From Actinomycetota bacterium (GTDB lineage: Bacteria > Actinomycetota > AC-67): 64,000 nucleotides of DNA. The position numbers and the translations under genes are program-made. Positions within the stretch are counted from its first letter, which is position 1. Every line of letters begins with the position of its first letter. This document shows, one piece after another, positions 5,657-61,595 of this stretch. The notes under the pieces were generated by a model. It had not been told where the DNA came from. It ran no database searches and worked only from the letters and a program-made list of their open reading frames with translations. The stretch spans positions 8,174 to 72,173 of the forward strand of contig DASWHR010000027.1 in NCBI GenBank assembly GCA_036398095.1. Reading direction: 5' to 3'.

Positions 5657-5696
5657 TTCATCACTGTACGCGAGCCCGCACGCCGCGACCGGGACG

Positions 5697-7868: not shown

Positions 7869-8225
7869 TGTGGCCCCCGACCGGGGCGGCAACGCAAGGA
7901 TTCGGACGAAACTTTCTTAGCGGACAACCCTCAGGTTCTTGACGATTCGTCGCGAAACGATCACAATGCTACGGCGCGGTAGGTTTTCGCGCCCGGCCGA
8001 TCCGGCGGCGATCCCGACTGGACGGAAGGATTCCGGCGAGAGAGTCACGAACTAGACACCACGCACCGCATGCAGCAAACGTTGAAGAAACCGACCCGGG
8101 AGCCGGCCATGATTCGTTGGAAGCGTTCATGGGAGGACCTGTCCGAGGCCCTTCCGCTCGACGTAATGCCTTGCTCGAACGGCGAGTTCTATCCGCCGCC
8201 CCCGACCAAGGAACAAAGAGCCGTC

Positions 8226-17363: not shown

Positions 17364-17442
17364 TGGGACTCCTTGTGTCGCAGAAAACGAGAGCGTGGTT
17401 GCTCTCATCCTACGACGCCGGAGCGAGCCGCGTTTTCCGCGT

Positions 17443-23137: not shown

Positions 23138-23179
23138 CGCCGGCACGCTGGGGGATGCACCTCGACGAACCGGAACCGT

Positions 23180-25033
23180 CTACGCGGGAAGCACCGGCAG
23201 GTTCAGCCACGACTCCAGGCCGGCGCGGTGGTGGATCGTGTTCAGCGCCGGCTTGAGCAGGTTCAGGTGGTTCGGCGTGTCGGCCGAGTAGATATCGATC
23301 CGCAGCGAATGGCCGGCCGCGAACGTCTTCGCCGTCGGCCAGATCTCGATCTCGTAGGTGTCGCGCGGTCGCGGCGGCTGCAGCGAGCCGGCCGTATGCG
23401 GGTGATAGGCCGCGATCACGTCGCCGTTCGGCGCAAACATGGTCTTGGACCGATCCAGCGCCTGATGCGACGCCCGCAGATAGCCCTGCGTGATCAACGT
23501 CGAGCGTCCGGACGGATCCACGTCGGTCAGCTTCACCACGAAATCGGTGTCGTGATACGGCGGCAGCGTCTGTAGCAGGCCGGGAAGCGGCCCCGGGTCC
23601 GCGACGCCGGGAATCCCGACCGATGTCGCGCGCAGATGCAGGTTGATCGTGCCGGCGATCTTCATGGCCGAGGAGAACGGCACCGTCGTATACGTGAGGC
23701 CCTTCGGCTCGTCGGTGCGCTGATCCCAATCCATGTAGGCGGCGCCGGCGAGCGCGTTGTCCCACCGCGAGGCGATCTCGGCCGTGCCGGCCGCCGGGTT
23801 GTAGACGTAGCGCGCGTCGGCGTCCGTGCCGGGCGCGTCGGGAGAGAGCACGCCGCCTTCGCGCAAGTAGTAGCGCTGATAGGCCGTCTCGGCCGGCGGC
23901 CACTGCGACGCGCTGCGCCACTCGCCGGTCGCATCCAGATGCGCGCCCGTGCCGATCAGGTAGTACTGCACCCGCGGGCCGTTCATCCACAACGGCGCCG
24001 GCGCGCCGGCGAGCCAGTGCAGATACCAGGCGGCCAGCGCGTCGCGCAGGCCCGGCTTCGGTTCGGGCGTGATGAAGTGCGTCTGTCCGTGATTCCACGG
24101 TCCAACGATCACATAGTTCGGACCGCGGCCGGTTCCGTCGGATTCTTGCGCGTGGGCTTGGCGGAACATCTCCATGCTGCCGCGCGTGAACGCGTCGAAC
24201 CAGCCGGCCAGTTGCAGCACCGGCACGCGCAAGTTCTGGATGCGCGGCAGGGACGATGAGTCGTCGTAGAGCTTCTGCGTGAACGCCGGCGTGGTGTGAT
24301 TCGACGTATACGTCGCGTCCGAATAGGGCGCGTTGAGGTAGTGCAGCATCATCGGGTCGTTCTTCGTCAAGTGATCCGTCCAGGCCGTTTGTCCCTGCGG
24401 GGTGTTCACGTCGGTCGGCGGCTGGGTGTAGAAGCCCGTCGTCCCGGTGGACCATGCAAGCCCGAAGGACCCGATGACCTGGCCGCCGTGATAGACGATG
24501 TCGCGATACAGGTCGCCGTAGGCGCGCTGCGGTGCGATCGCCGCCAGATGCTCGGGCGCGAGCGACGGCGGGAGTGTCGCGACCAGGTTCTGGATGATCC
24601 CCGAGTACGAGCCGCCGTACATACCGACCTCGTCCAGGCACGCGTCGGGGAAGCCGGGCAGCGAAAGGTCGGCCGCCATGTCCACGGCCGCGGCCGCGTC
24701 CAGTTGCTCGCGCATCGAGAACACGATGTCGTATTCGCCCTCCGAGCCGCCGGTGCCGCGCGCGTCCACCTCGATCAATGCGATGCCGGCGCCCGGCAGG
24801 AACGAGGCGCCTTCGGCGGCGCGCGTCTCTTTGCGGTACGGCGTCAGCTCGACCACGCACGGGAAGGGACCGTCGCCGTCGCCGGGCAGGTAGACATCGG
24901 CGGCCAATCGGACGCCGTCGTCCATCACGAGCGGCACGTCGATGAATTTTCGCGGCTCGGCCGCGCGCGTGGCGGCCGGAGCCAGCAGCATGGCGGACGC
25001 GAGGGCGAGCCCGGTCAAACGCTTGATCTTCAC
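23180..25033 (-). CDS. CocE/NonD-family (S15) hydrolase, secreted (paralog of 20768..22375)
   Basis: Signal peptide VKIKRLTGLALASAMLLAPAATRA. GGSYSG nucleophile motif. 617 aa with the C-terminal jelly-roll. A GGGAGGAA RBS precedes GTG 25033. Confidence 0.75.
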   Translation of the reverse strand: MKIKRLTGLALASAMLLAPAATRAAEPRKFIDVPLVMDDGVRLAADVYLPGDGDGPFPCVVELTPYRKETRAAEGASFLPGAGIALIEVDARGTGGSEGEYDIVFSMREQLDAAAAVDMAADLSLPGFPDACLDEVGMYGGSYSGIIQNLVATLPPSLAPEHLAAIAPQRAYGDLYRDIVYHGGQVIGSFGLAWSTGTTGFYTQPPTDVNTPQGQTAWTDHLTKNDPMMLHYLNAPYSDATYTSNHTTPAFTQKLYDDSSSLPRIQNLRVPVLQLAGWFDAFTRGSMEMFRQAHAQESDGTGRGPNYVIVGPWNHGQTHFITPEPKPGLRDALAAWYLHWLAGAPAPLWMNGPRVQYYLIGTGAHLDATGEWRSASQWPPAETAYQRYYLREGGVLSPDAPGTDADARYVYNPAAGTAEIASRWDNALAGAAYMDWDQRTDEPKGLTYTTVPFSSAMKIAGTINLHLRATSVGIPGVADPGPLPGLLQTLPPYHDTDFVVKLTDVDPSGRSTLITQGYLRASHQALDRSKTMFAPNGDVIAAYHPHTAGSLQPPRPRDTYEIEIWPTAKTFAAGHSLRIDIYSADTPNHLNLLKPALNTIHHRAGLESWLNLPVLPA

Positions 25034-25195
25034 AATCGATTCCTCCCGAAATGTTTCCGTACTCCTTCTGCATTGCCCGGTTCGAATCCTGCCGTCCGGT
25101 CCGGCGGTGAATGCCGTTCCTCGCCGCGGCGGCCGATTTGCCCGCGGCCAGGGCCATAGCCTTTCGCTTCGCCGGCCGTTAAACTCGATGAAGCT

Positions 25196-37893: not shown

Positions 37894-39357
37894 TCAAGAA
37901 TCTTGACGAGTGCCGTCAATACCTGACGGCCGCCCTCGCCGTCGCCCGGGGCCGGTCATGCCCTTCAGATCCAGCGCCTCGTCCAGCTCCTTCTCCGGAA
38001 GCACCTTGCGCTCTAACGCGACCTGCCGGATCGACTTGCCGGTCGTGAACGCTTCCTTGCTGATCTCGGCCGACAGGTCGTAGCCGATGGCCGGGACCAG
38101 CGCCGTCACGATCGGGAAGGTCTGCTCGGCCAGGTGCAGGGCACGTTCGCGGTCGGGTTCGAGCCCGTCGATGCACTTGTCGACGAACAGGCCGGCGGCC
38201 GACGACAACAGCTCGATCGACTCGAGCAGGTTGCGGGCGATCATCGGCATGAAGACGTTTAGCTCGAAATGGCCTTGCATGCCGCCGGCGACGATGGCGG
38301 CGTCGTTGCCGATCACCTGCGCGGCGACTTGCGTGACGACTTCGGGGATCACCGGGTTGATCTTGCCCGGCATGATCGACGAGCCGGGTTGCAGCTCGGG
38401 CAGCTTCAGCTCGCCCAGGCCGGCGCGCGGACCCGAGCCCATCCAGCGGATGTCGCTTGCGATCTTCATCAGCGACACGGCGATGGTGCGGAGCTGGCCG
38501 CTGGTTTCGACGCAGGCATCCTTCGCGCCTTGCGCCTCGAAATGGTTCTCGGCTTCGCGCACCGCAAGTCCGGAGCGTTCGGCCAGAATGGCGATCGCGC
38601 GCGCAGCGAACCGCTCGTCGGCGTTGATGCCGGTGCCGACGGCTGTGCCGCCCAGCGCCAGCTCGCCGAGCCGCGCGGTGGCGTCTTCGAGCCGGTCGAT
38701 GCCGCGGCGGATCTGCATCGCGTAGCCGGAGAACTCCTGTCCGAACGTGATCGGCGTTGCGTCCATCAGATGGGTCCGACCGGTCTTGATGTCGCCGGCC
38801 CACGCAGCCGCTTTCTCGTCGAGCGCGCCGCGAAGGCGCTGCAGCGCAGGGATCAGGTCGAAGGCGATGCCGGCGAGCGCCGCCACGTGGATCGCGGTCG
38901 GGATCACGTCGTTGGACGACTGGCCGCTGTTGACGTGGTCGTTGGGATGGACGAGCTTGGACCCGCGGTTTCCGCCGGCGATCTCGCTCGCGCGGTTGGC
39001 GATCACCTCGTTGGCATTCATGTTGGTCGAGGTGCCGGATCCGGTCTGAAAGATGTCGAGCACGAAATGCTCGTCGAGCGTCCCGGCGACGACCTCGTCG
39101 CACGCCGCTTTGATCGCGTCCGCGGTCTTCGCCTCGAGCAGCCCGAGTTCTGCGTTTACCGCGGCGGCGGCCCACTTGATCTGCCCGAGTGCTTCGATGA
39201 AACGGCGCGGGAATCGCCGTCCCGACACGGGAAAGTTCTCCACGGCGCGCTGCGTGGATGCGCCCCAGTAGGCATGCGCGGGGACGCGCACCTCGCCCAT
39301 CGAGTCCTTCTCGGTTCGGTCCTTGCTCACGGTCGATCCCTTCCTCGCCTCGATCAC
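37894..39357 (-). CDS. fumC: class II fumarate hydratase
   Basis: GSSIMPGKINP signature. N-terminal DSMGEVRVPAHAYWGASTQRAVENFPVSG. 487 aa. The GTG start is at 39357. Confidence 0.95.
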   Translation of the reverse strand: MIEARKGSTVSKDRTEKDSMGEVRVPAHAYWGASTQRAVENFPVSGRRFPRRFIEALGQIKWAAAAVNAELGLLEAKTADAIKAACDEVVAGTLDEHFVLDIFQTGSGTSTNMNANEVIANRASEIAGGNRGSKLVHPNDHVNSGQSSNDVIPTAIHVAALAGIAFDLIPALQRLRGALDEKAAAWAGDIKTGRTHLMDATPITFGQEFSGYAMQIRRGIDRLEDATARLGELALGGTAVGTGINADERFAARAIAILAERSGLAVREAENHFEAQGAKDACVETSGQLRTIAVSLMKIASDIRWMGSGPRAGLGELKLPELQPGSSIMPGKINPVIPEVVTQVAAQVIGNDAAIVAGGMQGHFELNVFMPMIARNLLESIELLSSAAGLFVDKCIDGLEPDRERALHLAEQTFPIVTALVPAIGYDLSAEISKEAFTTGKSIRQVALERKVLPEKELDEALDLKGMTGPGRRRGRPSGIDGTRQDS

Positions 39358-39492
39358 CTGAGTCTATTGATGACGGCCGCCCGCGGCCGAATCGGGACAA
39401 CGCGGAGGCAAATCCGGGAATCCGGCCGAAGCGGAATCGCGTGGGCGAGGGGCGCGGCGGTGCCGCGGCGAACCCCTGTGCGAGGGGGTGCG

Positions 39493-40245
39493 ATGCGATC
39501 CAGGGCTCGTTTCATGATTCCGTTGATGCTGCTCGCGGTGATGGGGCTGGCGCCGCTGCCGTCCCACGCCGTGACGCAGATGTTCATCATGAACGACGTC
39601 AATTCCAGTCTGGACGTCTACCAGCCGGCCTACACCCCCACGAGCGCGCTGCTTGCGCCCGGGACGGAGGTCAAGTGGCGAAACGACGACTTCGGGTCGC
39701 GATCGATTCATACAGCCACGGCCTATTACGGCGCGGCCTTCGCGTCGTCGGCCGTCGATCCCGGCGCCACGTTTACCACCACCTACGCGGGCGGAACCGC
39801 CCTGTTTCGATGCCTGTACCACTCGTCGCTCGATATGACCCTCACCCCGCCGGCGTGTAGCGGCATGTGCGGCGCGCTGCACGACGCCACCCAGGATCTG
39901 GCGCCGCCCACGGTGTCGATCACGACCAGTGACGGATTCGTCTTCACCGGCGGCGTCCGCATCGACGGGGTCGCCTCCGACGATCGGGCGGTCAAGACGA
40001 TCGCGATCACGTTCCGTCCGATCGCCGAAGTCCCGACCGTTCTTCCCGCCAAGAGCGTCGTCGCGCAGTGTGCCGGATGCGACGGCCCGTCCGCGAAGTG
40101 GAAGACGTTTCAAGATCCGGGCGTGAAAGGGCAGGCGCCGTTCTTGACGATGCCGCCGGGTCCATACCGCGTCGAGGCGATCGCGACCGATCCGCACGGC
40201 AACACCGGCTCCGCGCAGCCGATCACCATCTACGTACTCACCTAG
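39493..40245 (+). CDS. secreted cupredoxin-like protein with additional C-terminal beta domain
   Basis: GAGGGGG RBS. Signal peptide MRSRARFMIPLMLLAVMGLAPLPSHA. Candidate type-1 Cu ligands are H (RSIHTA), C-x2-H-x4-M (ALFRCLYHSSLDM). Trimmed from the long listed ORF. Confidence 0.55.
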   Translation: MRSRARFMIPLMLLAVMGLAPLPSHAVTQMFIMNDVNSSLDVYQPAYTPTSALLAPGTEVKWRNDDFGSRSIHTATAYYGAAFASSAVDPGATFTTTYAGGTALFRCLYHSSLDMTLTPPACSGMCGALHDATQDLAPPTVSITTSDGFVFTGGVRIDGVASDDRAVKTIAITFRPIAEVPTVLPAKSVVAQCAGCDGPSAKWKTFQDPGVKGQAPFLTMPPGPYRVEAIATDPHGNTGSAQPITIYVLT

Positions 40246-42340: not shown

Positions 42341-42754
42341 CTAGGGAGTGTGGGACCAGTCGGTCCAGGCGGTGGCGTCGATCGCCACGATGGCCGGCGG
42401 CGGGGGATCGTCGGCCAGTTGCGGGTACTTGTCGCGCAGCGCCGCGTCGGCGCGCTCGTATTCCTCGCCGCGCTCCAGAATCCGGCCGCGGCCTCGGATC
42501 CGGACCCACCACGCGTTCTCCCAGGCTTCCTCGTAGTGGTCCACGATCACGATGCAGTCGGGCCGGACGCGCAGGTTCTCGACGCGGCGGAGGCTGGTCG
42601 TGGTCTTGGGTTTGTGGTCGACCGGAGAGTAGATCGTGTCCCCGATCAGCGCGTAGCAGAATGGAACCAGGTTCGGCCGGCCGTCGGGATCGATGGTGGC
42701 GAGCCGGGCGACGCGGCCGTCGGCGACGCGGCGACGTGCGCGATCCGGCGTCAT
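42341..42754 (-). CDS. PPOX-class (pyridoxamine 5'-phosphate oxidase-like) probable F420-dependent enzyme
   Basis: About 137 aa, MTPDRARRRVADGRVARLATIDPDGRPNLVPFCYALIGDTIYSPVDHKP... The ATG at 42754 overlaps the TGA of the upstream gene (ATGA). Confidence 0.65.
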   Translation of the reverse strand: MTPDRARRRVADGRVARLATIDPDGRPNLVPFCYALIGDTIYSPVDHKPKTTTSLRRVENLRVRPDCIVIVDHYEEAWENAWWVRIRGRGRILERGEEYERADAALRDKYPQLADDPPPPAIVAIDATAWTDWSHTP

Positions 42755-44001
42755 GAGGTGATCTGCATGATCAAGCCGTCGTGGGTGACCACGAACACTT
42801 CGCCGGCGGCGTTTTCGCCGAGCGACACGACCGACTTGTTCGTGCGCGACACGATCCGGCTGGGTGCGCTGCCGTCGCGCGCATCGGTGGCCGACAGCGC
42901 GCGGACGAAGCCCGAGCATGCATCGCTGTAGAAGTAGAAGCCGCGCAGCTTCGGCGAGGCGGCGCCCCGATAGACGTAGCCGCCGGTAACGGCGCAATCG
43001 CCCTGGCTCTGATCGTATTGCGCGACCGGCAGCGTGAGGCCGCTCCGGTTGCACGAGGATGCGTTGAAGCAGGAGCGGCCCTCCATGATTCGCCAGCCGA
43101 AGTTCTTCCCGCCGCGCAGGGGGGCCGGTTCGAAGTCGACCTCCTCGAGCCGGTTCTGGCCGACATCGCCGATCCACAGATCCCCGGTCTGCCGGTCGAT
43201 CGAGATCCGCCACGGATTGCGAAGCCCGTAGTCGAAGATCTCGGCGCGCGCATCGGAGCGGCCGCGGAACGGGTTGCTCGGCGGGATTCCGTACGGCGAC
43301 CCGCTGTTGACGTCGATCCGCAAGATCTTTCCCAGCAGCGTCGTCAGCTTCTGGCCGTTGTTCTGCGGATCGCCGCCGCTGCCGCCGTCGCCCGTGGCGA
43401 TCAGCAGCATCCCGGTCTTGTCGAATACCAGCGCGCCTCCGTTGTGGTTCGCGTAGGGCTGATCGATGCGCAGCAAGACCATCTCCGATCCGGCGTTCGC
43501 GCTGCCGGCGTTTCCGGAGAACTCGCTAATACGGCTATCGCCGCTCGTGTTGGTGTAGTTGACGAACAGCCGGCCGTTGGATGCGAAGTTCGGATGGAAC
43601 GCCAAGCCGAGCAGGCCGCGCTCGCCGCCCGACCCGATCCGGCCGCGAATGTCCAGATACACCTGCGGCGAGGCGCCGGGCTCGATCCGCATGATCCGGC
43701 CGGCTTGCTCGATGGCATACAGCGTCGCATCGCCCGCGTGGGTGACGCCCACCGGCGAATCCAGTCCCGAAGCGACCGTCCGCAACCTGATGCTCAGATT
43801 CGAAAGCGTCGTCGCCGGTGGCGCAGGCGACGCGCTTCGCGCGGTGGGCGGGGTCGGCGACGGCGACGGCGACGGCGTCGGCGAAGGACTGGGCGATGGC
43901 GGTGAGGGCGATTCGCTCGCGGTGGGTCGCGTGACGGGTGAGCCGGACGAGCAGGCGGCAAGGCCCAGCAGCAGGGCGCACAGTGCGGCGATTCCTCGCA
44001 T
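42751..44001 (-). CDS. PQQ-dependent sugar dehydrogenase (soluble aldose/sorbosone dehydrogenase family) lipoprotein
   Basis: Lipobox LGLAACSSG, then a Pro/Ser linker. The beta-propeller signature includes RGLLGLAFHPNF and GGALVFDKTGMLLIATGDGG. Confidence 0.8.
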   Translation of the reverse strand: MRGIAALCALLLGLAACSSGSPVTRPTASESPSPPSPSPSPTPSPSPSPTPPTARSASPAPPATTLSNLSIRLRTVASGLDSPVGVTHAGDATLYAIEQAGRIMRIEPGASPQVYLDIRGRIGSGGERGLLGLAFHPNFASNGRLFVNYTNTSGDSRISEFSGNAGSANAGSEMVLLRIDQPYANHNGGALVFDKTGMLLIATGDGGSGGDPQNNGQKLTTLLGKILRIDVNSGSPYGIPPSNPFRGRSDARAEIFDYGLRNPWRISIDRQTGDLWIGDVGQNRLEEVDFEPAPLRGGKNFGWRIMEGRSCFNASSCNRSGLTLPVAQYDQSQGDCAVTGGYVYRGAASPKLRGFYFYSDACSGFVRALSATDARDGSAPSRIVSRTNKSVVSLGENAAGEVFVVTHDGLIMQITS

Positions 44002-44219
44002 CCACCGCAGCCTAATCGCTCATATTTCGGCTCGCCCGAGGTTCCGAGAGTTTCGATTTCTCCGCTTCCGAAGGAACGTCGAACCGCGATCGCGAATCGT
44101 TGAGCAGTCGAACGCAGGGAATGAGCCGTCCGGAGCAAAGAGGGGATGCTCCGGCCGGCCGTCCCCGCGGGGGCGAACCGGACAGATGGTTCACTAAGGA
44201 AATAGTGTCCGAAGGAAAT

Positions 44220-46727
44220 ATGACCCGGATTCGACTGCGGTTCCTCGTCGGCGCGCTCGCCGTGGTTCTGGCGATCCCCGGCGTCCGCGCGTCCGGCGAG
44301 ACGCCGCCGAAGATTCTCACCGTCGCCAACGACTCGACGCGTCCGCTCGCCTGGGACGGAACGGCCGTGCTGGCGCCGGCCGGCGTCCAGCAGTCGCAGC
44401 TGCGCGACGCGTCCTTCACCGCCGGCGCGGCCCATCAGCGTTTCGTCGCGAAGGTCGGACCGGCACGCGAGGCGCGCGTGACGATCTGGATCCACTGGGA
44501 GACCCCTGAGGATCTCGCCCTGGCCGTCACCGACGGAAAGCAAACGACCTACGCATCTTCGGACGAACAAGCCGGCACCGACGAGATCGTCTCGTTCGAC
44601 GTCGCGAACGGCGCGACCTACACGGTCGAGGTGTATGCGAAAGCCGGCGCACCCACCGGGGTGCGGCCCCAGTACGAGGCGACCGCCTGGGTTCGCCACG
44701 CCGACGGGATCAATACCACCAAGCGCGCCAACGCCACCTTGAAGTTCGTCAAGCCGAACGTGTGCGGCGATCCCAACTATCGCGTCGATGCGAACGGCTC
44801 GCGCGTCTACGAGCCGCCGCCGCCGTGCTACATGAAGCTGAAGATGCCGATTAACGTAGTCTTCGTCGGCTTCGACAAGGCCGAGGTGGACGCGCACAAG
44901 CCGGACGTCGCCGGCCAGTTCCCCGACCCAGACCCGCGCGCCCAATTGGTCAAGCCGATCGTCGAGAACGAATCGCGCACCGGCGGGGGCGTGCCGCTCG
45001 CGCGGAACGGCGGAAGCCAGGTGCGCCAGGCCGCCATGCTTCAGGGTTCGGCGATGAGCTATCTGCCGTGGGCGTACGATTTTGGCGAGCCCAACATCGT
45101 GGTCACCGACGAGGCCTGGACGCGCCGGCTGTTCGGCGCGGCGAAGGCGGCGACGACGTCGGGGGAGTACGCGCACCCCTGGGATCGCGCCTATCTGGAG
45201 TCCTACAACGGCCGTGCCGCCGCGCTCCGCCGCGATCATCCGGTCGTGCCCGGCTCGCCGGTGGACTTCATCGACGCGATGAAGGTCGAAGACTGGATCG
45301 CCAAGAACCCGCCGAAGGGATTGAAGTTCAACCCGGCCGACTCCGCGCTCGGATTCACCTATTTCGTCATCGACACCTACCGTCCGTCATATGCCGGCGA
45401 ATACTTCAACGTGGACCGTTACCACAATTTCCGCGTTATGAACTCGCTCACGACCGACCCCGATACCGGCGAGCAGCGCGGATTCGACTGGGGCCGCGTT
45501 TGGGGCGGCCGCTACCGGTTCTTGATGCTCGACGTCGGCGCGGCGCCGAACTCGTTCGAAGGATCCACGCCGGTCAACGGCGCGACTTACCGCGTCGCCG
45601 GAGGCGGCGATTCCGCGCTGCTGGATCCACCGGTGTGGGAGTACGCGAACTGCGCCGCGATCGACTGCCGCGACTTGCTGCCGATCATGTATCAGCGGAT
45701 CGGCGAGAACGCGCTCAGCGCGTTGTATACGCGTTTCGCGCGCGGATATGCCACCCGCCCGCGCGCCACCGATCTGTACCTGTTGTCGTCGAACACCTGG
45801 ACCGACGCGAACGCGGTCACCGACGCCCCGCCGCGCTACGACGCCAAGCGCGTCGCCGCGAGCGTCTACGACCTGATGCGCTACACGCGCGTCGTGCCGT
45901 TCACCCGCGCGAAGACGCTCCACGCCGGCGACGCCGAGCAAGAGGCGCTCGACGCCGCGCGAATGCAGTCGGCCGCGCGGCTGCCGTCGGGGACCGGAGC
46001 CGACCCGCATCCGGTGATGCGGATGATGCTTCGCGACCGAGCGGCCTACGCGCCGAAGATCCCCGGTTCGATTTCGATTCCGATCGTCAACGCGCTGCTT
46101 CCCGGCGCGACGTCGTGGAACGGCGCCGACGCCGACGGCTCGCTCCTTGCCGACCTCGGCGGCGACCCGTGGGGGCTCGTGCAGTCGATCAGCGACGCCG
46201 GGGCGGCACCGGTTGAGCGGGGCTTCACCGTGCCCGCGATCCGAAACGTCGGCCGCGTGCTCGGGCTGTATCCCGCGACGGAAGGCATCGCCTACACCCG
46301 CGACTTGCCGCCGGACGTGAACGCGCCGCGGCCTCATCCGGCGAAGGCGGACGAGCAGTATCGCGCCTACTACAAGACGTTCGACTGGACGCACGCGACG
46401 ACCGCGACGCCCATGGCGGCGGGATGGTTCTATTCGCGCTTCGAGATCCTGGACAAGGACGCGATCGGGATCGCGCACGCGTTCGACTGGCTCGACCGGT
46501 CGCTCGACGACGTCGCCGACGCGTTCGCGATCCTGGACGTGCGCGGGCACCGGACGCTGCCGAAGGCCGTGGAAGATCAGATCATGCGCGCCGGAACCTT
46601 CATGGGCCAGACCGTCGCCTACGTTCAGTTCGGCCTGATGACCCAAGCCGTGCGCGCCGCCCGTCGCGCCAAGACCGAGACCGAAAAAGTCGTCACCACC
46701 GCGATCAGGGCCGGGGTCCGTCGCTAG
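44220..46727 (+). CDS. large secreted protein of unknown function (~835 aa)
   Basis: AAGGAAA RBS. Signal peptide MTRIRLRFLVGALAVVLAIPGVRASG. There is no domain I can name. It is preceded by a 218-bp structured leader. Confidence 0.6.
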   Translation: MTRIRLRFLVGALAVVLAIPGVRASGETPPKILTVANDSTRPLAWDGTAVLAPAGVQQSQLRDASFTAGAAHQRFVAKVGPAREARVTIWIHWETPEDLALAVTDGKQTTYASSDEQAGTDEIVSFDVANGATYTVEVYAKAGAPTGVRPQYEATAWVRHADGINTTKRANATLKFVKPNVCGDPNYRVDANGSRVYEPPPPCYMKLKMPINVVFVGFDKAEVDAHKPDVAGQFPDPDPRAQLVKPIVENESRTGGGVPLARNGGSQVRQAAMLQGSAMSYLPWAYDFGEPNIVVTDEAWTRRLFGAAKAATTSGEYAHPWDRAYLESYNGRAAALRRDHPVVPGSPVDFIDAMKVEDWIAKNPPKGLKFNPADSALGFTYFVIDTYRPSYAGEYFNVDRYHNFRVMNSLTTDPDTGEQRGFDWGRVWGGRYRFLMLDVGAAPNSFEGSTPVNGATYRVAGGGDSALLDPPVWEYANCAAIDCRDLLPIMYQRIGENALSALYTRFARGYATRPRATDLYLLSSNTWTDANAVTDAPPRYDAKRVAASVYDLMRYTRVVPFTRAKTLHAGDAEQEALDAARMQSAARLPSGTGADPHPVMRMMLRDRAAYAPKIPGSISIPIVNALLPGATSWNGADADGSLLADLGGDPWGLVQSISDAGAAPVERGFTVPAIRNVGRVLGLYPATEGIAYTRDLPPDVNAPRPHPAKADEQYRAYYKTFDWTHATTATPMAAGWFYSRFEILDKDAIGIAHAFDWLDRSLDDVADAFAILDVRGHRTLPKAVEDQIMRAGTFMGQTVAYVQFGLMTQAVRAARRAKTETEKVVTTAIRAGVRR

Positions 46728-47815
46728 CCGAGCACCTCGCGGATCGCGTCCAGAAGGAACTCGATCGCGTCCTCGTGGCATGACTCACCCATGAGACCGA
46801 TCCGCCACGCCGTTCCCGCGAGCGGACCCAATCCGCCGCCGACCTCGACATCGAACCGATCCAGCAGCTCGCGCCGGAGCGCGTCGGCGTCCCGGCCGCC
46901 GGGCAGACGGACCGCTTGCAACTGTGGCAGGCGAAAACCGTCCTGCGCGAACTGCTCGAAGCCGAGTGCATCCAGCTCCTTGGCCAGCACGGCACCGAGT
47001 CGCTCGTGCCGGGCCCATCGGGTTTCGAGTCCCTCTTCGAGCACGAGGCGCAGACCTTCGTGCAATCCGAGCAGCATCGAGATCGGGGCGGTGTGATGGT
47101 AGACGCGCTCGGAACCCCAATATCGCGTCAGCAAGGAAACATCCAGGTACCACGATTGCACCGGGGATCGTCGCGCGGCGATGGCCTCGACGGCGCGCGG
47201 CGAGAACGTGATCGGCGCAAGGCCCGGCGGGACCGACAAGCACTTCTGCGTCCCCGAATAGCACACGTCCACGCCCCACGCGTCGGTCTCGACCGGGATC
47301 CCCGCGAGGGACGTCACGGCGTCCACCACGATCATTGCTCCCGCATCACGCCCGAGCGAGGCGAGCGGCTCGACCGGCTGCCGCATTCCGGTGGATGTCT
47401 CGGCATGCACGAACGCGAGCACTTTCGCCCCGTCCAGGTGTGGCACGATCCGCGCGGGCTCGATCGGGGTTCCCCATTCCGCGCGAACCTCGCGAACCTG
47501 CGCGCCGCATCGCCGGGCGACCTCGGCCATCCGCTCGCCGAACACGCCGGCGATCCCGACGACGGCGATGTCGCCCGGCTCGAGCAGATTCACCAGCGCG
47601 GCCTCCATCCCGGCACTGCCGGTGCCACTGACGGCGAACGTGGTTTCGTTGGCGGTTTTGAACGTGCGCCTGAGCATGTCGCGCACCTCGTCCATCATGG
47701 ACAGGAACTCCGGATCGAGATGGCCGAGCAGCGGACGGGCCATCGCCTGAAGCACCGAGGGAGCCACGGTGGACGGCCCGGGTCCGAATAGCCGCCGAAT
47801 TCGGTAGTTTCGCAC
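46724..47815 (-). CDS. class V aminotransferase (alanine--glyoxylate / serine--pyruvate aminotransferase family)
   Basis: LFGPGPSTVAPSVLQAMARPLLGH and SGTGSAGMEAALVNLLEPGD are collinear with AGXT. Trimmed to GTG 47815, because the listed TTG at 47878 would overlap the divergent neighbour's start. Confidence 0.8.
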   Translation of the reverse strand: MRNYRIRRLFGPGPSTVAPSVLQAMARPLLGHLDPEFLSMMDEVRDMLRRTFKTANETTFAVSGTGSAGMEAALVNLLEPGDIAVVGIAGVFGERMAEVARRCGAQVREVRAEWGTPIEPARIVPHLDGAKVLAFVHAETSTGMRQPVEPLASLGRDAGAMIVVDAVTSLAGIPVETDAWGVDVCYSGTQKCLSVPPGLAPITFSPRAVEAIAARRSPVQSWYLDVSLLTRYWGSERVYHHTAPISMLLGLHEGLRLVLEEGLETRWARHERLGAVLAKELDALGFEQFAQDGFRLPQLQAVRLPGGRDADALRRELLDRFDVEVGGGLGPLAGTAWRIGLMGESCHEDAIEFLLDAIREVLG

Positions 47816-47868
47816 GAGCCGGAAGCATAACCTTGATCCTTTCCGGGTGGGCTGGTCGTTTATAGATC

Positions 47869-49326
47869 GTGAAGCCAACCCACAGGGTGATCTCGCGCGG
47901 GCGCGTCATGCTCGCCGCCGCGTTGTCGGTCGCCGCGATCGTGCCGCTCACGCCGGCCCGAGCGCTCGTTCCTTATCAGGGCTGGACGCCGTCGTCGCTT
48001 GGCATGGTTCCGGAATGCGGCAAGTATGAGACGAGCGGCTACGCGGTCTCCGGTTGTTTGATCACGCGCCGCATGCGCTTCCACCCGACGTTGCCCGGCG
48101 TGGCCGTCGTTGGGACGCTGCGACAAGGGCCGTGGATCACGACGAACGGATCCACCTGGACGCCGCTCGCGCCGCACTGTCTGTCGACGCTATACACAAT
48201 CGAAAGCGCAGTCGGGAACGGCCTGGGCGCCTGCGGGGTCGAAGACATCGCGTTCGATCCGCTCGAGCCTCAGACAATCTATGTCACCGCATTCACGTTC
48301 TCGTCGCCGCTGTTGATCGGCTACAACATCGAGCCGGCCGGCGTGTACCGCTCGATCAACATGGGCGTTACGTGGGAGTTGATCTCGCCTCCGATTCGCG
48401 GCGCCGGCCTTGCGGTGATCCGCGACGCGGCGCGCACCACGATCATGGCGGGACAGATCCAGCACTCCGACTGGGACATCGGTACGACCAAGAGCTTGAT
48501 CATCTCCGACAACGGCGGGCAGACATGGCGCAACGTGAGCCTGCCGGCCGCGTCCGGCTGCAACCGCAACGTCTTCCTGTCCTCGTCGTATCTGGTCGCG
48601 ACGATCGTGCGGCATCCGACGAACCCGAACCTTGTGTATGCGGCAACGAACGGCGGCATCTACATGAGCGCCAACCGCGGTGCCTCGTGGTCGGTTGTGC
48701 TTGCCAAGTGCATCTCGAAACCGGTTTCGATCGGCATGATCTGGGGGCTGACGATCTCCCCCGACGGCAAGACCGTCTTCGCCGGCCTCTGGGACGGGAC
48801 CATCATGATGTCGTCGACGACGCGCACTTCGACCAAGACGTGGAAGAAGGTGACGACGATCGATGGGACGATGATCTCGCACTTGATGCCCGATGTGCGC
48901 GATCCAACGGGAAAGACCTTCTACGCGGCGGCGCTCAACAAGGCGGCCGGAAAGACCAACATCTCCGCCGGCGTCTACCGGATCAAGATCGGCTCGCCGA
49001 CGAAATGGGAGCTGCTGATGGATTCGTGGGCGTCCGGGGTGAACCACGCGATGGGATCCTTGCCGCGCGGCCCGTACAATCTGATCAAAGACTCGCCGGC
49101 ATTCTGGATGGCGCAAAACCCGGTCGACCGCGATGTGATCTACGTGTCGCAGGCCGCCGGCGGAATCTTCTGGCGAAGCGAAGGCTCGCCGTCCCCGTCG
49201 GCGGAGAATCCGGGATTGCCGGCGGTGCCGGCCGCTCCGCCCGTCCCGACCGCGACGCCGACCGCGCTTCCGACCGCGACGTCCACGCCGCGCGTGCCGT
49301 TTCCCACCGCAACCCCGACGCTCTAA
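47869..49326 (+). CDS. secreted BNR/Asp-box repeat protein (sialidase-fold / Ycf48-like beta-propeller)
   Basis: Signal peptide, then repeated S-x-D-x-G-x-T-W motifs (SDNGGQTWRNV, ATNGGIYMSANRGASW, SPDGKTVF). The C-terminus is Pro/Thr/Ala-rich. Start is GTG 47869 or ATG 47908. Confidence 0.65.
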   Translation: MKPTHRVISRGRVMLAAALSVAAIVPLTPARALVPYQGWTPSSLGMVPECGKYETSGYAVSGCLITRRMRFHPTLPGVAVVGTLRQGPWITTNGSTWTPLAPHCLSTLYTIESAVGNGLGACGVEDIAFDPLEPQTIYVTAFTFSSPLLIGYNIEPAGVYRSINMGVTWELISPPIRGAGLAVIRDAARTTIMAGQIQHSDWDIGTTKSLIISDNGGQTWRNVSLPAASGCNRNVFLSSSYLVATIVRHPTNPNLVYAATNGGIYMSANRGASWSVVLAKCISKPVSIGMIWGLTISPDGKTVFAGLWDGTIMMSSTTRTSTKTWKKVTTIDGTMISHLMPDVRDPTGKTFYAAALNKAAGKTNISAGVYRIKIGSPTKWELLMDSWASGVNHAMGSLPRGPYNLIKDSPAFWMAQNPVDRDVIYVSQAAGGIFWRSEGSPSPSAENPGLPAVPAAPPVPTATPTALPTATSTPRVPFPTATPTL

Positions 49327-52126: not shown

Positions 52127-52855
52127 TCAAAGGTCGGCGAACATGAACCCGACCCACAGGCCGTGCGCGACCGAACGCGAATCAACGCGCAGCCCCAGCC
52201 GCTCGAAGTGGCGTGCGACGTTTCCCAAGTCGCGCTCGAGCAGCTCGTGTCCGTCACGCGCAGTCCGGGGATCGACGGCCTGGGGAAAGTCGATGAGCAC
52301 CGGCCGTTCGTCCCACCACAGGATGTTGTAGGGCGACAGGTCGCAGTGGATGACGTTCGCGGCGAGCATCTTTTCGACGTTGGCGACGATCCGTTCCCAC
52401 GCGTCGCGCGCCTCGCGATGGCCGAGCCGGACGCGATTCAGTTGCGGCGCGGCGGTCTCGATCGAGCCGATGTATTCCATCGCGATCGAGCGCGGCCCTT
52501 GCGCGATCGGCTCGGGCACGTCGCAGCCGGCGGCGTGCAACTCGACCAGCCGCTCCCACTCGCGGTGGATCCATAGCCCTTCCTGCATCTGATGGCCCCA
52601 CCCGGTCTTCTTCTGGATCGCGCGCCGGTCGCGGGCTTTCAGCGTGCGAATGTCGGCGCCCATGTAGGCAAGGTCGGCGCGAAAGCCGCGTTCCTCGATC
52701 GGTTTGTATTCCTTGATCGCGATCAGGTCGCGTCCCGTGCGCGGATGGGCTTCGCACAGCACGACCGTCGCTTCCTTGCCGCTCTTCATGGGCCGGATGG
52801 GGCGCGTGATGTAGGCCTCTCCGGTGAAGTAATCCAGGGTTTCGCTTGTGAGCAC
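52127..52855 (-). CDS. RIO1-family atypical serine protein kinase
   Basis: VIHCDLSPYNILWWDERPVLIDFPQAVD matches the catalytic and metal-binding loops of RIO kinases. A GGAGA RBS precedes the GTG start. Confidence 0.75.
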   Translation of the reverse strand: MLTSETLDYFTGEAYITRPIRPMKSGKEATVVLCEAHPRTGRDLIAIKEYKPIEERGFRADLAYMGADIRTLKARDRRAIQKKTGWGHQMQEGLWIHREWERLVELHAAGCDVPEPIAQGPRSIAMEYIGSIETAAPQLNRVRLGHREARDAWERIVANVEKMLAANVIHCDLSPYNILWWDERPVLIDFPQAVDPRTARDGHELLERDLGNVARHFERLGLRVDSRSVAHGLWVGFMFADL

Positions 52856-53077
52856 GATCGCATCTCCTCGAAAAGGTCGCAGTCGGATAGGACATGCGCC
52901 ATCGGGAGTCGCGAGGGGTGTGACGGTGTGTCGAGAGCGGACCGGAATCCGGTCCGCTTCTTACACAGCGTGGAGGCTGGCGGCGTCCCGAAGGCGCGCG
53001 AAGACCGTGACGGTGTCCGTCATGGTGCGCCTCCCTTCGGGTCAGAGCCGGCACCGCGGCCGGCGATGTGAACGACT

Positions 53078-54379
53078 CTACGTCGCCGGCCGAGCCGCGT
53101 CCAGCATTTTTTCGGCGACCGCCTTGGTGCGGTCGTATCGGATGAATGACGGCAGCGCGAGTGCGACCACGCCGGCGCCGACCAGGCAGGCCAGCCCGCC
53201 CGACACGACGCTGAGCCGCACCGACGTCAATCCCGCGACCACGCCGGCTTCCACATCGCCGAGCGTCGGGCCGCCCGCATAGACGGCGATCTCCATCCCC
53301 GACAGGCGGCCGCGAAGATGGTCGGGCGTGACCTCTTGCACGATCGCCATCCGGAAGATGCCGCTGACCGCGTCGGCGAAGCCGGCCGCCGCCAAGCACG
53401 CGACCGCGACCGGGATGCTGCGCGTCAACCCGAACGCGGCGATCGCAACGCCCCAGCCCAGGACCGAGAGCGTGACGGCCAGGCCTTGCCGGCGTATGCG
53501 TCCCGACCAGCCGCTCGCCGCCATCGCCAGGAACGATCCGGCGCTGGGCGCGGCGTAGAGAAGTCCGAGGGACTTTGGCCCGCCGCCCATCATCGCCGCC
53601 ATCGCGGGAAACAGCGCCCTGGGCATGCCGAACACCATCGCGTTCAGGTCGATCAGGAATGAGCCCTGCAGCATCGGCCGGCCGCGAAGGAACGCGAAGC
53701 CTTCCAGGATCGACTTGAACCCGGGCGCGGCGGCATGCTCGCTCGCCGGCGAGGGCCGCATCATCGAGATCATCGCCAACGCGAACACGAACGTGCCCAC
53801 GTCGACCAGGTACGTGCCGGCCAGTCCGATCGTTGCGATCGCCAGCCCGCCGATCGCCGGCCCGGCCAGATGCGAGATCCCGAACGAGGATCCTTCTAGC
53901 GCCGCCATCGCCGGCAGCTTCGCCGGCGCGACCAAACGCGGCGCCCACGAGCGACGCGCCGGGATCGCGAAACCGAACGCGCCGGCCTGCACCGCAGCCA
54001 TTACGTAGAGGAACCACAGCGGCCCGCCGATTGAGGCGTTCCACGCGAGCAGCGACGACACGCCGATCTCGGCCAGGAGAATGATCGTGAGCAGCCGGCG
54101 ACGTTCGTGCGCGTCGGCGATCGCGCCGCCGACGATCGAGGCCACGATCAGCGGCGCCAACTCGGCCGCGCCCAGCAAGCCGACGGCCATCGCCGAGTGC
54201 GTGATCCGCCAGACTTGGTAGGGGAGTGCCACCATCGCCATGGCGGACCCGAGCGACGACACCGACATGCCGAAGAACAGGAAGCGGAAGTCGCGCGACT
54301 CGCGAAGAGGAGAGACGTCAAGCGCAATCCCGCGAATGCGAGACCGCATCCGCGAGCCGGGTTTCGACGGTTCGCTCAC
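53078..54379 (-). CDS. MFS transporter
   Basis: About 12 predicted TM segments with the MFS arrangement. 433 aa. Confidence 0.8.
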   Translation of the reverse strand: MSEPSKPGSRMRSRIRGIALDVSPLRESRDFRFLFFGMSVSSLGSAMAMVALPYQVWRITHSAMAVGLLGAAELAPLIVASIVGGAIADAHERRRLLTIILLAEIGVSSLLAWNASIGGPLWFLYVMAAVQAGAFGFAIPARRSWAPRLVAPAKLPAMAALEGSSFGISHLAGPAIGGLAIATIGLAGTYLVDVGTFVFALAMISMMRPSPASEHAAAPGFKSILEGFAFLRGRPMLQGSFLIDLNAMVFGMPRALFPAMAAMMGGGPKSLGLLYAAPSAGSFLAMAASGWSGRIRRQGLAVTLSVLGWGVAIAAFGLTRSIPVAVACLAAAGFADAVSGIFRMAIVQEVTPDHLRGRLSGMEIAVYAGGPTLGDVEAGVVAGLTSVRLSVVSGGLACLVGAGVVALALPSFIRYDRTKAVAEKMLDAARPAT

Positions 54380-59207: not shown

Positions 59208-60392
59208 TTGAACTGGGTCGATCTCGTCATCCTCGGCGCGCTCGGCCTCGGCATCTGGACCGGCTACCGGCGCGGCGCCGTCTTGCAGGTGTTCTCCTGG
59301 GGCGGATTCGTTCTGGGGTTGGTGATCGGCTTCCTGCTGGCGCCGCCGCTCGTCGGCTTGTTCATCAACAACCCCGAAAGCGCGTCGATTCCCATCTACA
59401 CGATCGTCGCGCTGCTCGGCATCGCCTTCGTGGTCGAAGGGATCGTCGCCGCGTTCGCGATGAAGCTTCGCAAGAAGATCACCAACGCGACGATCAACAA
59501 GACCGACAAGATCGTCGGCTCGGCGATCGCCGGCATCCTGTCTCTGGTCGGCGCGTGGCTGCTCGGGTCGACGCTTGGCAACCTGCCGGCCAAGTCGGTC
59601 GCGTCCGCCGTGCGCGAATCGGCGATCATCCGAGTGCTCAACAACATCGCGCCGCCGCCGCTTTCCATCACCGCCGAGATCAGCCGCCTGCTTCGCAACA
59701 GCGGCTTCCCCGAAGTCTTCGCCGCTCTCAATCCGTCACTCGCGCCCGGCGTCGAACCGCCGCCCGAGAGCCTGGCCGGCGACCAAGAGATCCTGGCTGC
59801 GGCCGAGATCACCTACAAGATCGAATCCAAAGGATGCAACGGGCTGGTAGACGGCTCAGGATTCCCGATCGGATCGGACATGCTCGTCACCGCGGCGCAC
59901 GTCGTGGCCGGCACGCGTGACACGCAGGTCCTGCCGGCGACGGACCGGCGCTCCTACAAGGGAACCGTCATCTATATGGACACCGACAAGGACATCGCGA
60001 TCATCCGCGTGAGCCTGCCCGGCAAGGTGTTCTTCGTCGAAGACGAGCACGCGGCGCGAAACACCGACGGCGCGGCGATCGGCTATCCCGGCGGCGGAAA
60101 GCGCAAGATCTCGCCGGCGCGCGTGCGGTCGCGTACGCAGGCTCGCGGCTACGACATCTACTCGCAAGGGACGGTCACGCGCACGATCTATGTGCTCCAC
60201 GCCGAGGTGCGCCAAGGCAACTCGGGCGGGCCGTTGGTGGATACCGACGGCAGGATTCGCGGGATGGTCTTCGCCGCCTCCCGCGAGGATCCCAACGAGT
60301 CCTACGCCCTGGCCGAAAACGAGATCTTCCGCGCCGTCGATCGCGCCAGAGGAAAGACCCAGCAGGTCGACACCGGCCGCTGTGCCCTGTAG
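59208..60392 (+). CDS. MarP-like membrane serine protease (CvpA-family TM domain fused to trypsin-like S1 protease)
   Basis: AGGAGG RBS 6 nt before TTG 59208. About four TM helices (CvpA-like). Catalytic triad His (TAAHVV), Asp (DIAIIRV), Ser (GNSGGPLV). Confidence 0.75.
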   Translation: MNWVDLVILGALGLGIWTGYRRGAVLQVFSWGGFVLGLVIGFLLAPPLVGLFINNPESASIPIYTIVALLGIAFVVEGIVAAFAMKLRKKITNATINKTDKIVGSAIAGILSLVGAWLLGSTLGNLPAKSVASAVRESAIIRVLNNIAPPPLSITAEISRLLRNSGFPEVFAALNPSLAPGVEPPPESLAGDQEILAAAEITYKIESKGCNGLVDGSGFPIGSDMLVTAAHVVAGTRDTQVLPATDRRSYKGTVIYMDTDKDIAIIRVSLPGKVFFVEDEHAARNTDGAAIGYPGGGKRKISPARVRSRTQARGYDIYSQGTVTRTIYVLHAEVRQGNSGGPLVDTDGRIRGMVFAASREDPNESYALAENEIFRAVDRARGKTQQVDTGRCAL

Positions 60393-60413
60393 CCGGCGAG
60401 TACCATTGAAGCC

Positions 60414-61595
60414 GTGCGCGACTATGCGATCCTCCATTACCACGAGATCGGGCTGAAGGGCGGCAATCGGTCGTTCTTCGAGCGGGCCCTGCAGCGCAAC
60501 GTCGATCGCGCGCTGAGGGGTCTGGCCGGCAATGCCAAGCGGCTGCCCGGCCGCCTGCTCGTCCCGTTGGTCGCGGGCGCGGATCGCGACGAGGTGATCA
60601 TGCGCCTCGGCCGCGTCTACGGCATCGCCAACTTCGCGCTGGCCACGGGTGACGAGATGACGCTCGAGCAGATCCACGACGTCGCCTGGGACCATATGCA
60701 GCGCGCCGACTTCGAAACGTTCGCCGTCCGCGCGCGCATCGCGCACTCGACGCTGCCCTACACCGTTCGTGAGCTCAACGAAAGGATCGGCGCCGTCTTG
60801 CTCGAGCGCAGCAAGACGAAGGTGAACCTGAGCGCGCCCGATCTGACCGTCCACGTCGAGATCGTCGGCGATCTCGTGCTCGTCTACACCACCAAGCATC
60901 CCGGGCCGGGCGGCCTGCCGGTCGGTGTCAGCGGCCGCAGCGTCGTGTTGATCTCGGCCGGGATCGACTCGCCGGTCGCGGCCGCCCGCATGATGCGCCG
61001 CGGCTCGAAGGTCACCTTCGTGCACTTCCATTCGATGCCGTTCACCGACGCGTCCAGCACGCGGCAGACCGAAGAGATCGTCCAGCATCTGACACGCCAC
61101 CAGAACGAGGCGAACTTGTGGATCGTGCCGCTGGCGCAGGCGCAGCAAGAGATCGTCGCCGTCGCGCCGCAGCAGCTTCGCACGATCCTGTACCGCCGAA
61201 TGATGATGCGCATCGCCGCGCTCGTCGCCGAGCAGGAAGGCGCCAAAGCGCTGGTCACCGGCGACTCGCTCGGCCAGGTCGCCAGCCAGACGATCGAGAA
61301 TCTCACCGCCGTCGAGGATGCCTCGTCGCTGCCGGTGCTTCGGCCGCTGATCACGCTCGACAAGATCGAGATCATCGCCGAAGCGCAGAAGCTGGGAACG
61401 TTCGAGGTGTCGGCGGCGCCGTGCCAGGAAGCCTGCGTCCTGTTCGAGCCCAAGCGGCCGGCGACCAAGGCGAGCGTAGAGGAATCCCGCCGCGCCGAGG
61501 AGAAGCTGGACGTGGACGCGCTCGCCAAAGAGGCTTTCGCGCAGGCCGAGCTCCGCACGTATCGTTATCCGGAGACTCCAGGAGACCACACGTGA
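60414..61595 (+). CDS. thiI: tRNA 4-thiouridine synthase (tRNA uracil 4-sulfurtransferase)
   Basis: THUMP-like N-terminus and PP-loop SAGIDSPVAA. 393 aa. GTG start. Confidence 0.85.
   Translation: MRDYAILHYHEIGLKGGNRSFFERALQRNVDRALRGLAGNAKRLPGRLLVPLVAGADRDEVIMRLGRVYGIANFALATGDEMTLEQIHDVAWDHMQRADFETFAVRARIAHSTLPYTVRELNERIGAVLLERSKTKVNLSAPDLTVHVEIVGDLVLVYTTKHPGPGGLPVGVSGRSVVLISAGIDSPVAAARMMRRGSKVTFVHFHSMPFTDASSTRQTEEIVQHLTRHQNEANLWIVPLAQAQQEIVAVAPQQLRTILYRRMMMRIAALVAEQEGAKALVTGDSLGQVASQTIENLTAVEDASSLPVLRPLITLDKIEIIAEAQKLGTFEVSAAPCQEACVLFEPKRPATKASVEESRRAEEKLDVDALAKEAFAQAELRTYRYPETPGDHT

Follow-up and report, generated by a model that had tools for sequence, protein, structure and literature searches.

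PIG-S, a non-catalytic subunit of the eukaryotic glycosylphosphatidylinositol (GPI) transamidase, is essential for GPI anchoring. In the structure of the human GPI transamidase, residues 222-398 of this subunit (PIGS) were found to fold like the metzincin AmzA while lacking the tri-histidine site and the methionine, and the 'shamrock-like' protein, whose function is otherwise described as unclear, holds the protease PIGK in two grooves (PMC9098846). The metzincin-like fold, devoid of an active site, is the only form in which PIG-S is known (PMC9098846). The metzincins themselves (MEROPS clan MA(M)), among them the archaemetzincin AmzA, serralysin, the astacin-like myroilysin and the ADAM/adamalysin proteins, are defined by the consensus HEXXHXXGXXH/D, and inactive metallopeptidase homologues (pseudopeptidases) are represented by proteins such as the catalytically dead ADAM22. 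Here we compare with these systems the product of a gene at 44220-46727 (+) in a 64-kb window, i.e., the whole stretch of contig DASWHR010000027.1 from an Actinomycetota bacterium that was analysed. This 835-amino-acid protein (the window protein), which together with seven orthologues constitutes clade A of its family, is probably a secreted pseudopeptidase, a non-catalytic binder rather than a cleaver.

The layout of the gene and its product, as read from the sequence, the family alignment and a predicted structure, is as follows:

44220..46727, + strand, coding sequence of the 835-residue secreted protein, about 87 kDa
44220..44291, + strand, Sec signal peptide, residues 1-24, read from the sequence, with cleavage after VRA (MTRIRLRFLVGALAVVLAIPGVRA-SG)
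44307..44714, + strand, PPC/collagen-binding-type beta-sandwich, residues ~30-165
44832..46439, + strand, predicted PIG-S-like body around a metzincin-like core, residues ~205-740, borders read from the secondary structure of the model
45405-45560, + strand, most conserved block of the family, residues 396-447, inside the PIG-S-like body
46236..46286, + strand, degenerate zinc-binding helix A673-IRNVGRVLGLYPATE-G689, aligned to HEAGHFxGLSHxHD of the paralogues
46401..46427, + strand, Met-turn remnant TATPMAAGW, residues 728-736, with M732 kept and the Tyr of the relatives replaced by Ala (A734)
46446..46709, + strand, C-terminal three-helix bundle, residues 743-830, with neither an LPXTG signal nor a transmembrane segment

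The initial annotation had described the product as a secreted protein with no recognisable domain. Its secreted character is borne out by the Sec-type signal peptide at the start of the 835-residue reading frame, and the N-terminal hydrophobic segment is conserved across the family. The absence of a domain holds for profile scans at threshold: no curated Pfam or NCBIfam family was matched, the NCBIfam scan gave no family at all, and the sole near-threshold match in the curated libraries was the PPC domain PF04151, with a Pfam score of 24.8 bits against a cut-off of 25.9. Further, a search of PDB sequences with the single window protein returned nothing meaningful, and tblastn for a second copy within the window found no paralogue. 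The same claim fails once the family alignment and structure prediction are considered, which point not to a domain-less protein but to a PIG-S/metzincin-like body with an ablated zinc site, preceded by a probable PPC domain.

The AlphaFold2 model of the window protein, built from a 32-sequence alignment, has a mean predicted local distance difference test score (pLDDT) of 78.7 and a predicted template modelling score (pTM) of 0.82. In it, the elements of the metzincin catalytic-domain fold, namely a five-stranded sheet, an active-site helix and a C-terminal helix, appear to be present, as does the overall fold of the luminal 'shamrock' domain of PIG-S. A helix is modelled at residues 670-680, and the loop from the degenerate helix to the Met-turn remnant (residues 691-722) is of low confidence, the same stretch being confidently modelled in an active paralogue. 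Foldseek searches with the model recovered PIG-S (E 1.1e-8 and 4.1e-8) and Gpi17 (E 2.5e-5) with probability 1.0. The predicted fold of the window protein thus most resembles PIG-S.

Homologues of the window protein comprise 32 clusters in a collection of 5.8 billion proteins, and an exhaustive search among 1.84 billion yielded 42 representatives with E < 1e-3. They are drawn from uncultured Actinomycetota (Gaiellaceae, Acidimicrobiia, Nitriliruptoraceae and unclassified metagenome-assembled genomes) and from a branch of the Thermoplasmatota. This rare family appears not to have been described before, and no Pfam or NCBIfam entry covers it at threshold. In the alignment the close relatives split into clades A and B. 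Inspection of the columns of the zinc motif shows that the metzincin signature HExxHxxGxxHxHD is retained, in the form HE[A/S/P]xHxxG[L/Y]xHxHD, in 18/18 aligned members outside clade A, the archaeal ones included (alignments A1 and A3). The same 18/18 also carry a tyrosine at the Met-turn position, the archaeal members having TIMSY, those of clade B TPMGY and a further actinobacterial branch APT[TS]Y; this tyrosine is preceded by methionine in most of them and by threonine in one actinobacterial branch. When the family profile is compared with PDB sequences, the best matches outside the PPC domain are metzincins, with myroilysin (E 0.003, from the zinc helix to the Met-turn) ahead of serralysin (E 0.027), and ADAM33 and the matrix metalloproteinases as weaker matches. 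Additionally, sub-threshold matches to the Pfam Matrixin and Reprolysin models overlap the zinc helix in the active relatives.

All eight clade A sequences instead display [RQ][NDG]xG[RS]xxGLx[PG]x[TN]E at these columns, together with a Met-turn of the form TPM-x-x that lacks the tyrosine. In the window protein the columns read A-I-R-N-V-G-R-V-L-G-L-Y-P-A-T-E-G, which amounts to the changes H675R, E676N, H679R, H685P, H687T and D688E, in addition to the replacement of the Met-turn tyrosine by A734. None of the three zinc histidines survives in the clade, nor do the catalytic glutamate, the His-Asp pair that follows and the tyrosine of the Met-turn, and its proteins contain no HExxH at any other place. 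In a neighbour-joining tree clade A is monophyletic in 100/100 bootstraps, as is the union of A and B, and all outgroups are motif-positive. With clade A monophyletic and the motif retained in every outgroup, the tree is most parsimoniously explained by one loss, in the ancestor of clade A. In the metagenome-assembled genome DATLFO01 a clade A gene (L007) is accompanied by one of clade B (L010, encoding P0027), so that motif-intact and motif-dead paralogues coexist in at least one genome.

Loss of every residue needed for zinc catalysis might also be expected of a decaying metalloprotease relic, a pseudogene in the making without function. The pattern of selection makes this extremely improbable: the ratio of nonsynonymous to synonymous substitution rates (dN/dS) of the gene is 0.13 against the orthologue in locus L001 and 0.17 against that in L002, and it is at its lowest, 0.09-0.12, in the very segment with the degenerate motif. 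Further, the frame is full-length and intact in eight orthologues (86% to 46% identity) at a fixed chromosomal position, and the clade has gained conserved cysteines, exactly four in number (182, 203, 478 and 483), which form two probable disulfides (C182-C203 and C478-C483). Synteny of the gene is conserved in L001-L006, likewise from 86% down to 46% identity. The gene is a stable chromosomal orthologue, neither mobile nor decaying.

A different alternative is that the protein is still an enzyme, acting through another site common to the family that is centred on the block at residues 396-447 together with Y329, R337 and E357, with clade A specialised but active. The strongest conservation in alignments A1 and A3 does lie in this block and not in the zinc helix, the block is untouched in clade A, and dN/dS is low over the middle region (0.12-0.16). 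Set against this, the block shows no catalytic signature in Pfam, NCBIfam or PDB sequence searches, and the strongest conservation within a fold is often found in buried structural cores with many Trp, Gly and Pro residues. The retention of the full metzincin motif and the tyrosine in every aligned member outside clade A also argues that the zinc site is the active site of the family. On balance a retained activity of this kind is unlikely. As to its sequence, the block reads YHNF...DPDTG...DWGRVWGGRYRF..D.GAAPN..E; it is far from the zinc motif in sequence and carries no known signature.

The more probable course, that of a non-catalytic binder, would be as follows. The protein would be exported by the Sec pathway and, after cleavage of the signal peptide, act outside the cell as a binder or scaffold without metzincin catalysis; to judge by the missing ligands, peptide hydrolysis of the metzincin type should be beyond it. 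Binding may involve what is left of the substrate cleft, which R675 and R679 now line, together with the PPC domain. The protein could keep a partner enzyme in place, be it one of its active relatives or another, as the structurally similar and likewise zinc-less PIG-S does with the protease PIGK in the GPI transamidase, or its ligand could be of the kind that those relatives bind.

Several observations weigh against this interpretation. The evidence on the fold comes from predicted models. The invariant residues H402, W428-G-G430 and D438 of the block at 396-447 lie outside the zinc motif and are intact in the window protein, which allows for a second functional site and hence a retained activity. 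The gene context points to no partner, and the contexts of the active relatives vary. With regard to PIG-S itself, its Pfam family was missing from the scans of the window protein, of 15 relatives (E up to 0.1-10) and of the 32 members of A1 (E up to 0.01); no PIG-S chains appeared when the A1 and A3 profiles were run against PDB (E up to 10); and neither a search with an archaeal member nor a profile search of a large protein database gave a homologue annotated as PIG-S. Finally, the roles proposed below for elements of the upstream spacer are deduced from sequence comparison.

The resemblance to the described systems is accordingly one of fold, and the differences are considerable. The window protein has no detectable sequence similarity to PIG-S or Gpi17 (PDB 7w72_S, 7wld_S, 8imx_S and 9ub7_D). 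PIG-S is held in the membrane by N- and C-terminal helices, within a five-subunit complex that bacteria lack, whereas the window protein lacks a membrane anchor, its signal peptide is of the cleavable kind, its C-terminal part is a helical bundle, and it carries in addition a predicted PPC domain; flanking transmembrane helices of the PIG-S type are missing, as there is no C-terminal hydrophobic segment. The conserved neighbourhood suggests no complex, the partners PIGK, PIGT, GPAA1 and PIGU not having been specifically searched for. Moreover, no PIG-S has been reported to retain an active site, while most prokaryotic relatives of the window protein retain theirs.

In contrast to the metzincins (AmzA, serralysin, the myroilysin/astacin-like enzymes and the adamalysins), the window protein has neither zinc ligands nor a catalytic glutamate and departs from the clan consensus. 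Its apparent core, according to the model, would be interrupted by several hundred inserted residues, and, where the Met-turn of astacins and serralysins is followed by a tyrosine, it keeps M732 and has an alanine. No Pfam metzincin family is matched at threshold, even by the active relatives. Judged by its residues, the window protein is not a functional metzincin, the defining zinc motif having been tested for and found absent. The dead ADAMs are animal transmembrane proteins with disintegrin and EGF modules, unlike this soluble bacterial protein from an undescribed family.

A further comparison concerns Pfam DUF7906 (PF25483), a domain without a described function, which is matched below threshold (13.5-24.2 bits, cut-off 27) around a conserved EDW...YTYFV region in five family members, namely the archaeal P0064, P0066 and P0061 and the bacterial P0032 and P0041; the window protein itself gave no match at E up to 1. 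Neither prokaryotic PIG-S-like proteins nor DUF7906 were described in the literature searched. Taken together, the window protein is pseudopeptidase-like and, in predicted fold, PIG-S-like; it is not a PIG-S member by sequence, membrane topology or complex context.

The mode of surface attachment also separates the clades. A sortase-type LPXTG C-terminus, with its hydrophobic segment and basic tail, is absent from all clade A proteins. Such an ending, with LPATG or LPSTG as the motif, is present in many clade B and more distant relatives (e.g., P0009, P0010, P0014, P0020, P0028, P0030, P0036, P0040 and P0041), which are probably sortase-anchored.

The gene order in clade A comprises acetyl-CoA synthetase, a PNPOx-like gene, in some cases the glucose/sorbosone dehydrogenase gene (GSDH), the target gene, a convergent class-V aminotransferase, a secreted BNR propeller and malic enzyme, i.e., a neighbourhood of metabolic genes and a secreted propeller. 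In the window the target gene is monocistronic; it diverges from the GSDH gene, and the class-V aminotransferase gene at 46724-47878 (-) runs towards it. A conserved operon partner was considered and rejected, as the motif-intact relatives have differing contexts, a Tad pilus/sortase locus in one and housekeeping genes in others.

Some further features of these neighbourhoods may be recorded. The motif-intact P0027, from a sister metagenome-assembled genome, is encoded inside a Tad pilus gene cluster (L029/L030 4681-13703), beside a sortase gene; the cluster contains TadE, a Tad-family gene, a DUF4244 gene, two T2SSF genes and a T2SSE ATPase. The genes of other clade B members have unrelated surroundings. 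The BNR propeller of the window (47869-49326, +) is a secreted BNR/sialidase-like beta-propeller with a Pro/Thr-rich C-terminal tail, which matches Pfam Sortilin-Vps10 below threshold and, weakly, the NCBIfam F510_1955 glycosylhydrolase. Every clade A locus has it in synteny with the target gene, and in L033 (794-2131) a similar gene occurs close to the clade B gene.

The region upstream of the target gene had been described in the initial annotation as a structured leader with direct repeats. Its 218 bp separate two divergent genes, and its features are:

42751..44001, - strand, GSDH gene, encoding a 416-residue lipoprotein glucose/sorbosone dehydrogenase of the pyrroloquinoline quinone (PQQ) type (Pfam GSDH PF07995, E 2e-39; LAAC lipobox in the translation)
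44002..44219, no strand, divergent intergenic control region, 218 bp between the GSDH gene and the target gene (the 'leader' of the initial annotation)
44067..44076, + strand, TCCGAAGGAA, copy 1
44208..44217, + strand, TCCGAAGGAA, copy 2, overlapping the second AAGGAAATA just 5' of the ATG
44125..44159, + strand, GC-rich inverted repeat/hairpin GCCGTCCGGAGCA-N9-TGCTCCGGCCGGC, with 13-nt arms at 44125-44137 and 44147-44159
44163..44172, no strand, palindrome CCCCGCGGGG, a variable region in L001 and L002
44179..44211, + strand, inverted repeat CGGACA-N21-TGTCCG, enclosing a possible promoter
44196-44204 and 44212-44220, + strand, two copies of AAGGAAATA (core GGAAAT, twice), 16 nt apart, the second abutting the start codon

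The GSDH lipoprotein has a Ser/Pro/Thr-rich linker of ~45 residues (SPSPPSPSPSPTPSPSPSPTPP) from the lipobox to its beta-propeller.

The elements that had been named are real. The TCCGAAGGAA repeat occurs twice, at true starts of 44067 and 44208 instead of about 44058 and 44206; the GGAGC-N11-GCTCC hairpin forms the core of the longer inverted repeat (GGAGC at 44132, GCTCC at 44148, span 44132-44152); and the palindrome CCCCGCGGGG and the lower GC are likewise present, the latter being 59.6% in the intergenic region against 67.8% in the whole window. What does not follow is that they make up a leader, since the region lies between two divergent genes; the direct repeat, moreover, is neither statistically unusual nor conserved. 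Exactly two copies of TCCGAAGGAA are present in the window, where 0.12 would be expected for this specific 10-mer. The rarity of a specific word is the wrong test: when the dinucleotides of the region are shuffled, 4% of the resulting sequences contain some exact direct repeat of at least 10 nt, and so do 13% (77/586) of real 218-nt chunks from the window. Since such repeats are this common, and since the pair is not kept in orthologous regions, where it is replaced by TACGAAGGAA / TCCTAGGGAA in L001 and by CGCGAAGGAA / TCCTAAGGAA in L002, it is unremarkable. The second copy carries a G to T change in both L001 and L002, which in L001 yields a TAG in frame with the conserved ATG. The TCCGAAGGAA direct repeat is incidental, with no demonstrable role.

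Six orthologous loci were fetched for comparison of the upstream region, and the spacers are of the following lengths, with the identity of the encoded protein to the window protein:

window, spacer of 218 nt
L001, spacer of 228 nt, protein identity 86%
L002, spacer of 455 nt, protein identity 80%
L003, spacer of 199 nt, protein identity 58%
L004, spacer of 94 nt, protein identity 52%
L005, spacer of 80 nt, protein identity 46%

The window and L001 spacers are 80% identical overall, rising from 55% at the GSDH end to 91-93% over the last 60 nt. As the third codon positions of both flanking genes are 64-66% identical in the same comparison, the part nearest the target start lies above this level and is thus constrained. 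Regulatory signals of one kind or another are therefore probably present in the intergenic region. The window, L001 and L002 share the GC-rich hairpin (-21.7 to -25.4 kcal/mol), in whose closing pair A-T gives way to G-C; L003 has lost it by deletion, and it is not present in L004 or L005. The only spacer elements persisting in L003 are ATCGTTGA (44096) and GGAAATAGTKTC-N4-GGAAAT (44198-44219), and the orthologues of 46-52% identity, with intergenic regions of 80-94 nt, lack the long spacer. A scan of metagenome contigs for the conserved motif GGAAATAGTNTCNNNNGGAAAT gave at least 119 matches, of which one, in L056 from an L001-like organism, is genuine and adjoins the gene; the rest look like chance.

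Two questions on the start of the gene can be settled from the same alignments. A TTG-initiated extension from 44100 (875 residues) was considered and rejected, as L001 has frame-breaking indels (+4 nt) as well as the in-frame TAG noted above. In the window, the first AAGGAAATA copy is followed by an in-frame GTG; a stop follows this GTG in L001 and L002, and it is hence not the start.

On these comparisons, the proposal of the initial annotation, in which a fold-less orphan secreted protein is placed under a structured, riboswitch-like 218-nt 5' leader whose TCCGAAGGAA repeats and hairpins act together, one repeat copy spanning the ribosome-binding site, is quite improbable. In its support, the named features exist, the hairpin is stable with one compensatory A-T to G-C change among three relatives, and the start-proximal spacer outstrips third codon positions in conservation. 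Folding of 44120-44165 as RNA indeed gives -24 kcal/mol (z = -3.2), and folding of the stem region alone -21.7; for the whole intergenic region z is -2.1 only. The Rfam scan that had been suggested found nothing near threshold: in a covariance scan of 43800-44500 with Rfam 15 (E up to 10), none reached the gathering score, the sole matches being Scr3920 (24.9 bits, gathering score 88) and Scr2736 (17 bits, gathering score 43). The ordinariness of the repeat, the loss of the hairpin in the 58%-identity orthologue and of the long spacer beyond it, and the recurrence of the motif next to the gene in a single further contig also speak against a leader of this kind, as do the service of the region to a divergent gene and the recognisable fold of the protein. 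Further, the symmetric change in the palindrome is compatible equally with an RNA stem and with the binding site of a dimeric protein.

A second alternative takes the 218 bp as pure promoter/operator DNA, with a nearly leaderless mRNA starting a few nt before the ATG. Here a -35-like CGGACA (44179) would be separated by an 18-nt spacer from a TANNNT-type -10 box, TAGTGT (44203-44208), with the GC-rich palindrome upstream serving as a regulator-binding site or as an insulator between the divergent promoters. The stretch CGGACA...TAGTGT falls in the best-conserved part of the spacer (91-93% identity to L001) and is recognisable even in L003, as CGAACA...TAGTTT. In the window, L001 and L003 a GGAA and the start codon are separated by 0-2 nt, less than a Shine-Dalgarno element would need, which hints at a very short or absent 5' untranslated region (UTR); in L002 the called start lies 21 nt past this motif. 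Shine-Dalgarno usage among the other genes of the window, checked in order to judge the AAGGAA elements, showed no clear pattern. Running counter to this alternative, sigma-70 and terminator consensus scans of the spacer gave no match, the promoter being one that we infer, and the 11 nt from the -10 box to the ATG are longer than ideal for a strictly leaderless start. We regard it as possible, though short of probable.

The region is best described as a real but lineage-restricted control region common to two divergent genes. Its conserved start-proximal ~100 nt probably hold a promoter and/or a short 5' UTR, and the GC-rich palindrome could serve as an RNA stem-loop or a protein-binding site. 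The upstream region is of local interest only.

The initial annotation had also singled out the gene as the largest unannotatable reading frame of the window, and it is probably the largest real gene there without a family assignment, the larger open reading frames (ORFs) being aconitase and its shadow ORF. Two ORFs on the + strand, 15156-17957 (933 residues) and 38269-40245 (658 residues), match no family; they are most likely shadow ORFs opposite aconitase (14703-17408, -) and fumarase (37894-39357, -), respectively. Shadow ORFs are common at this GC content. Five ORFs of 577-675 residues had no Pfam match (E up to 1e-5): 23130-25157 (-), 8070-10034 (+), 52254-54044 (-), 4076-5851 (+) and 59856-61589 (-).

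With respect to annotation, what would be entered as a 'hypothetical / PPC domain-containing protein' becomes a defined, if still probable, pseudopeptidase, and a family absent from Pfam and NCBIfam at threshold is delineated. A broader and decidedly speculative proposal, which we consider rather unlikely, is that this family of Actinomycetota and Thermoplasmatota is the prokaryotic, still-catalytic counterpart of PIG-S, that PIG-S arose from an active metzincin-type surface peptidase, and that clade A represents a parallel conversion to a zinc-less scaffold. If so, members of the clade might hold a partner enzyme in a bacterial machine for processing or anchoring proteins at the cell surface, in the way that PIG-S holds PIGK, and the textbook metzincin site kept by most family members would give PIG-S a plausible enzymatic ancestry. 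With the fold as predicted, the family would offer a tractable bacterial or archaeal system for its study, and the natural pair of active and inactive paralogues in one genome could be used to ask what such a scaffold binds.

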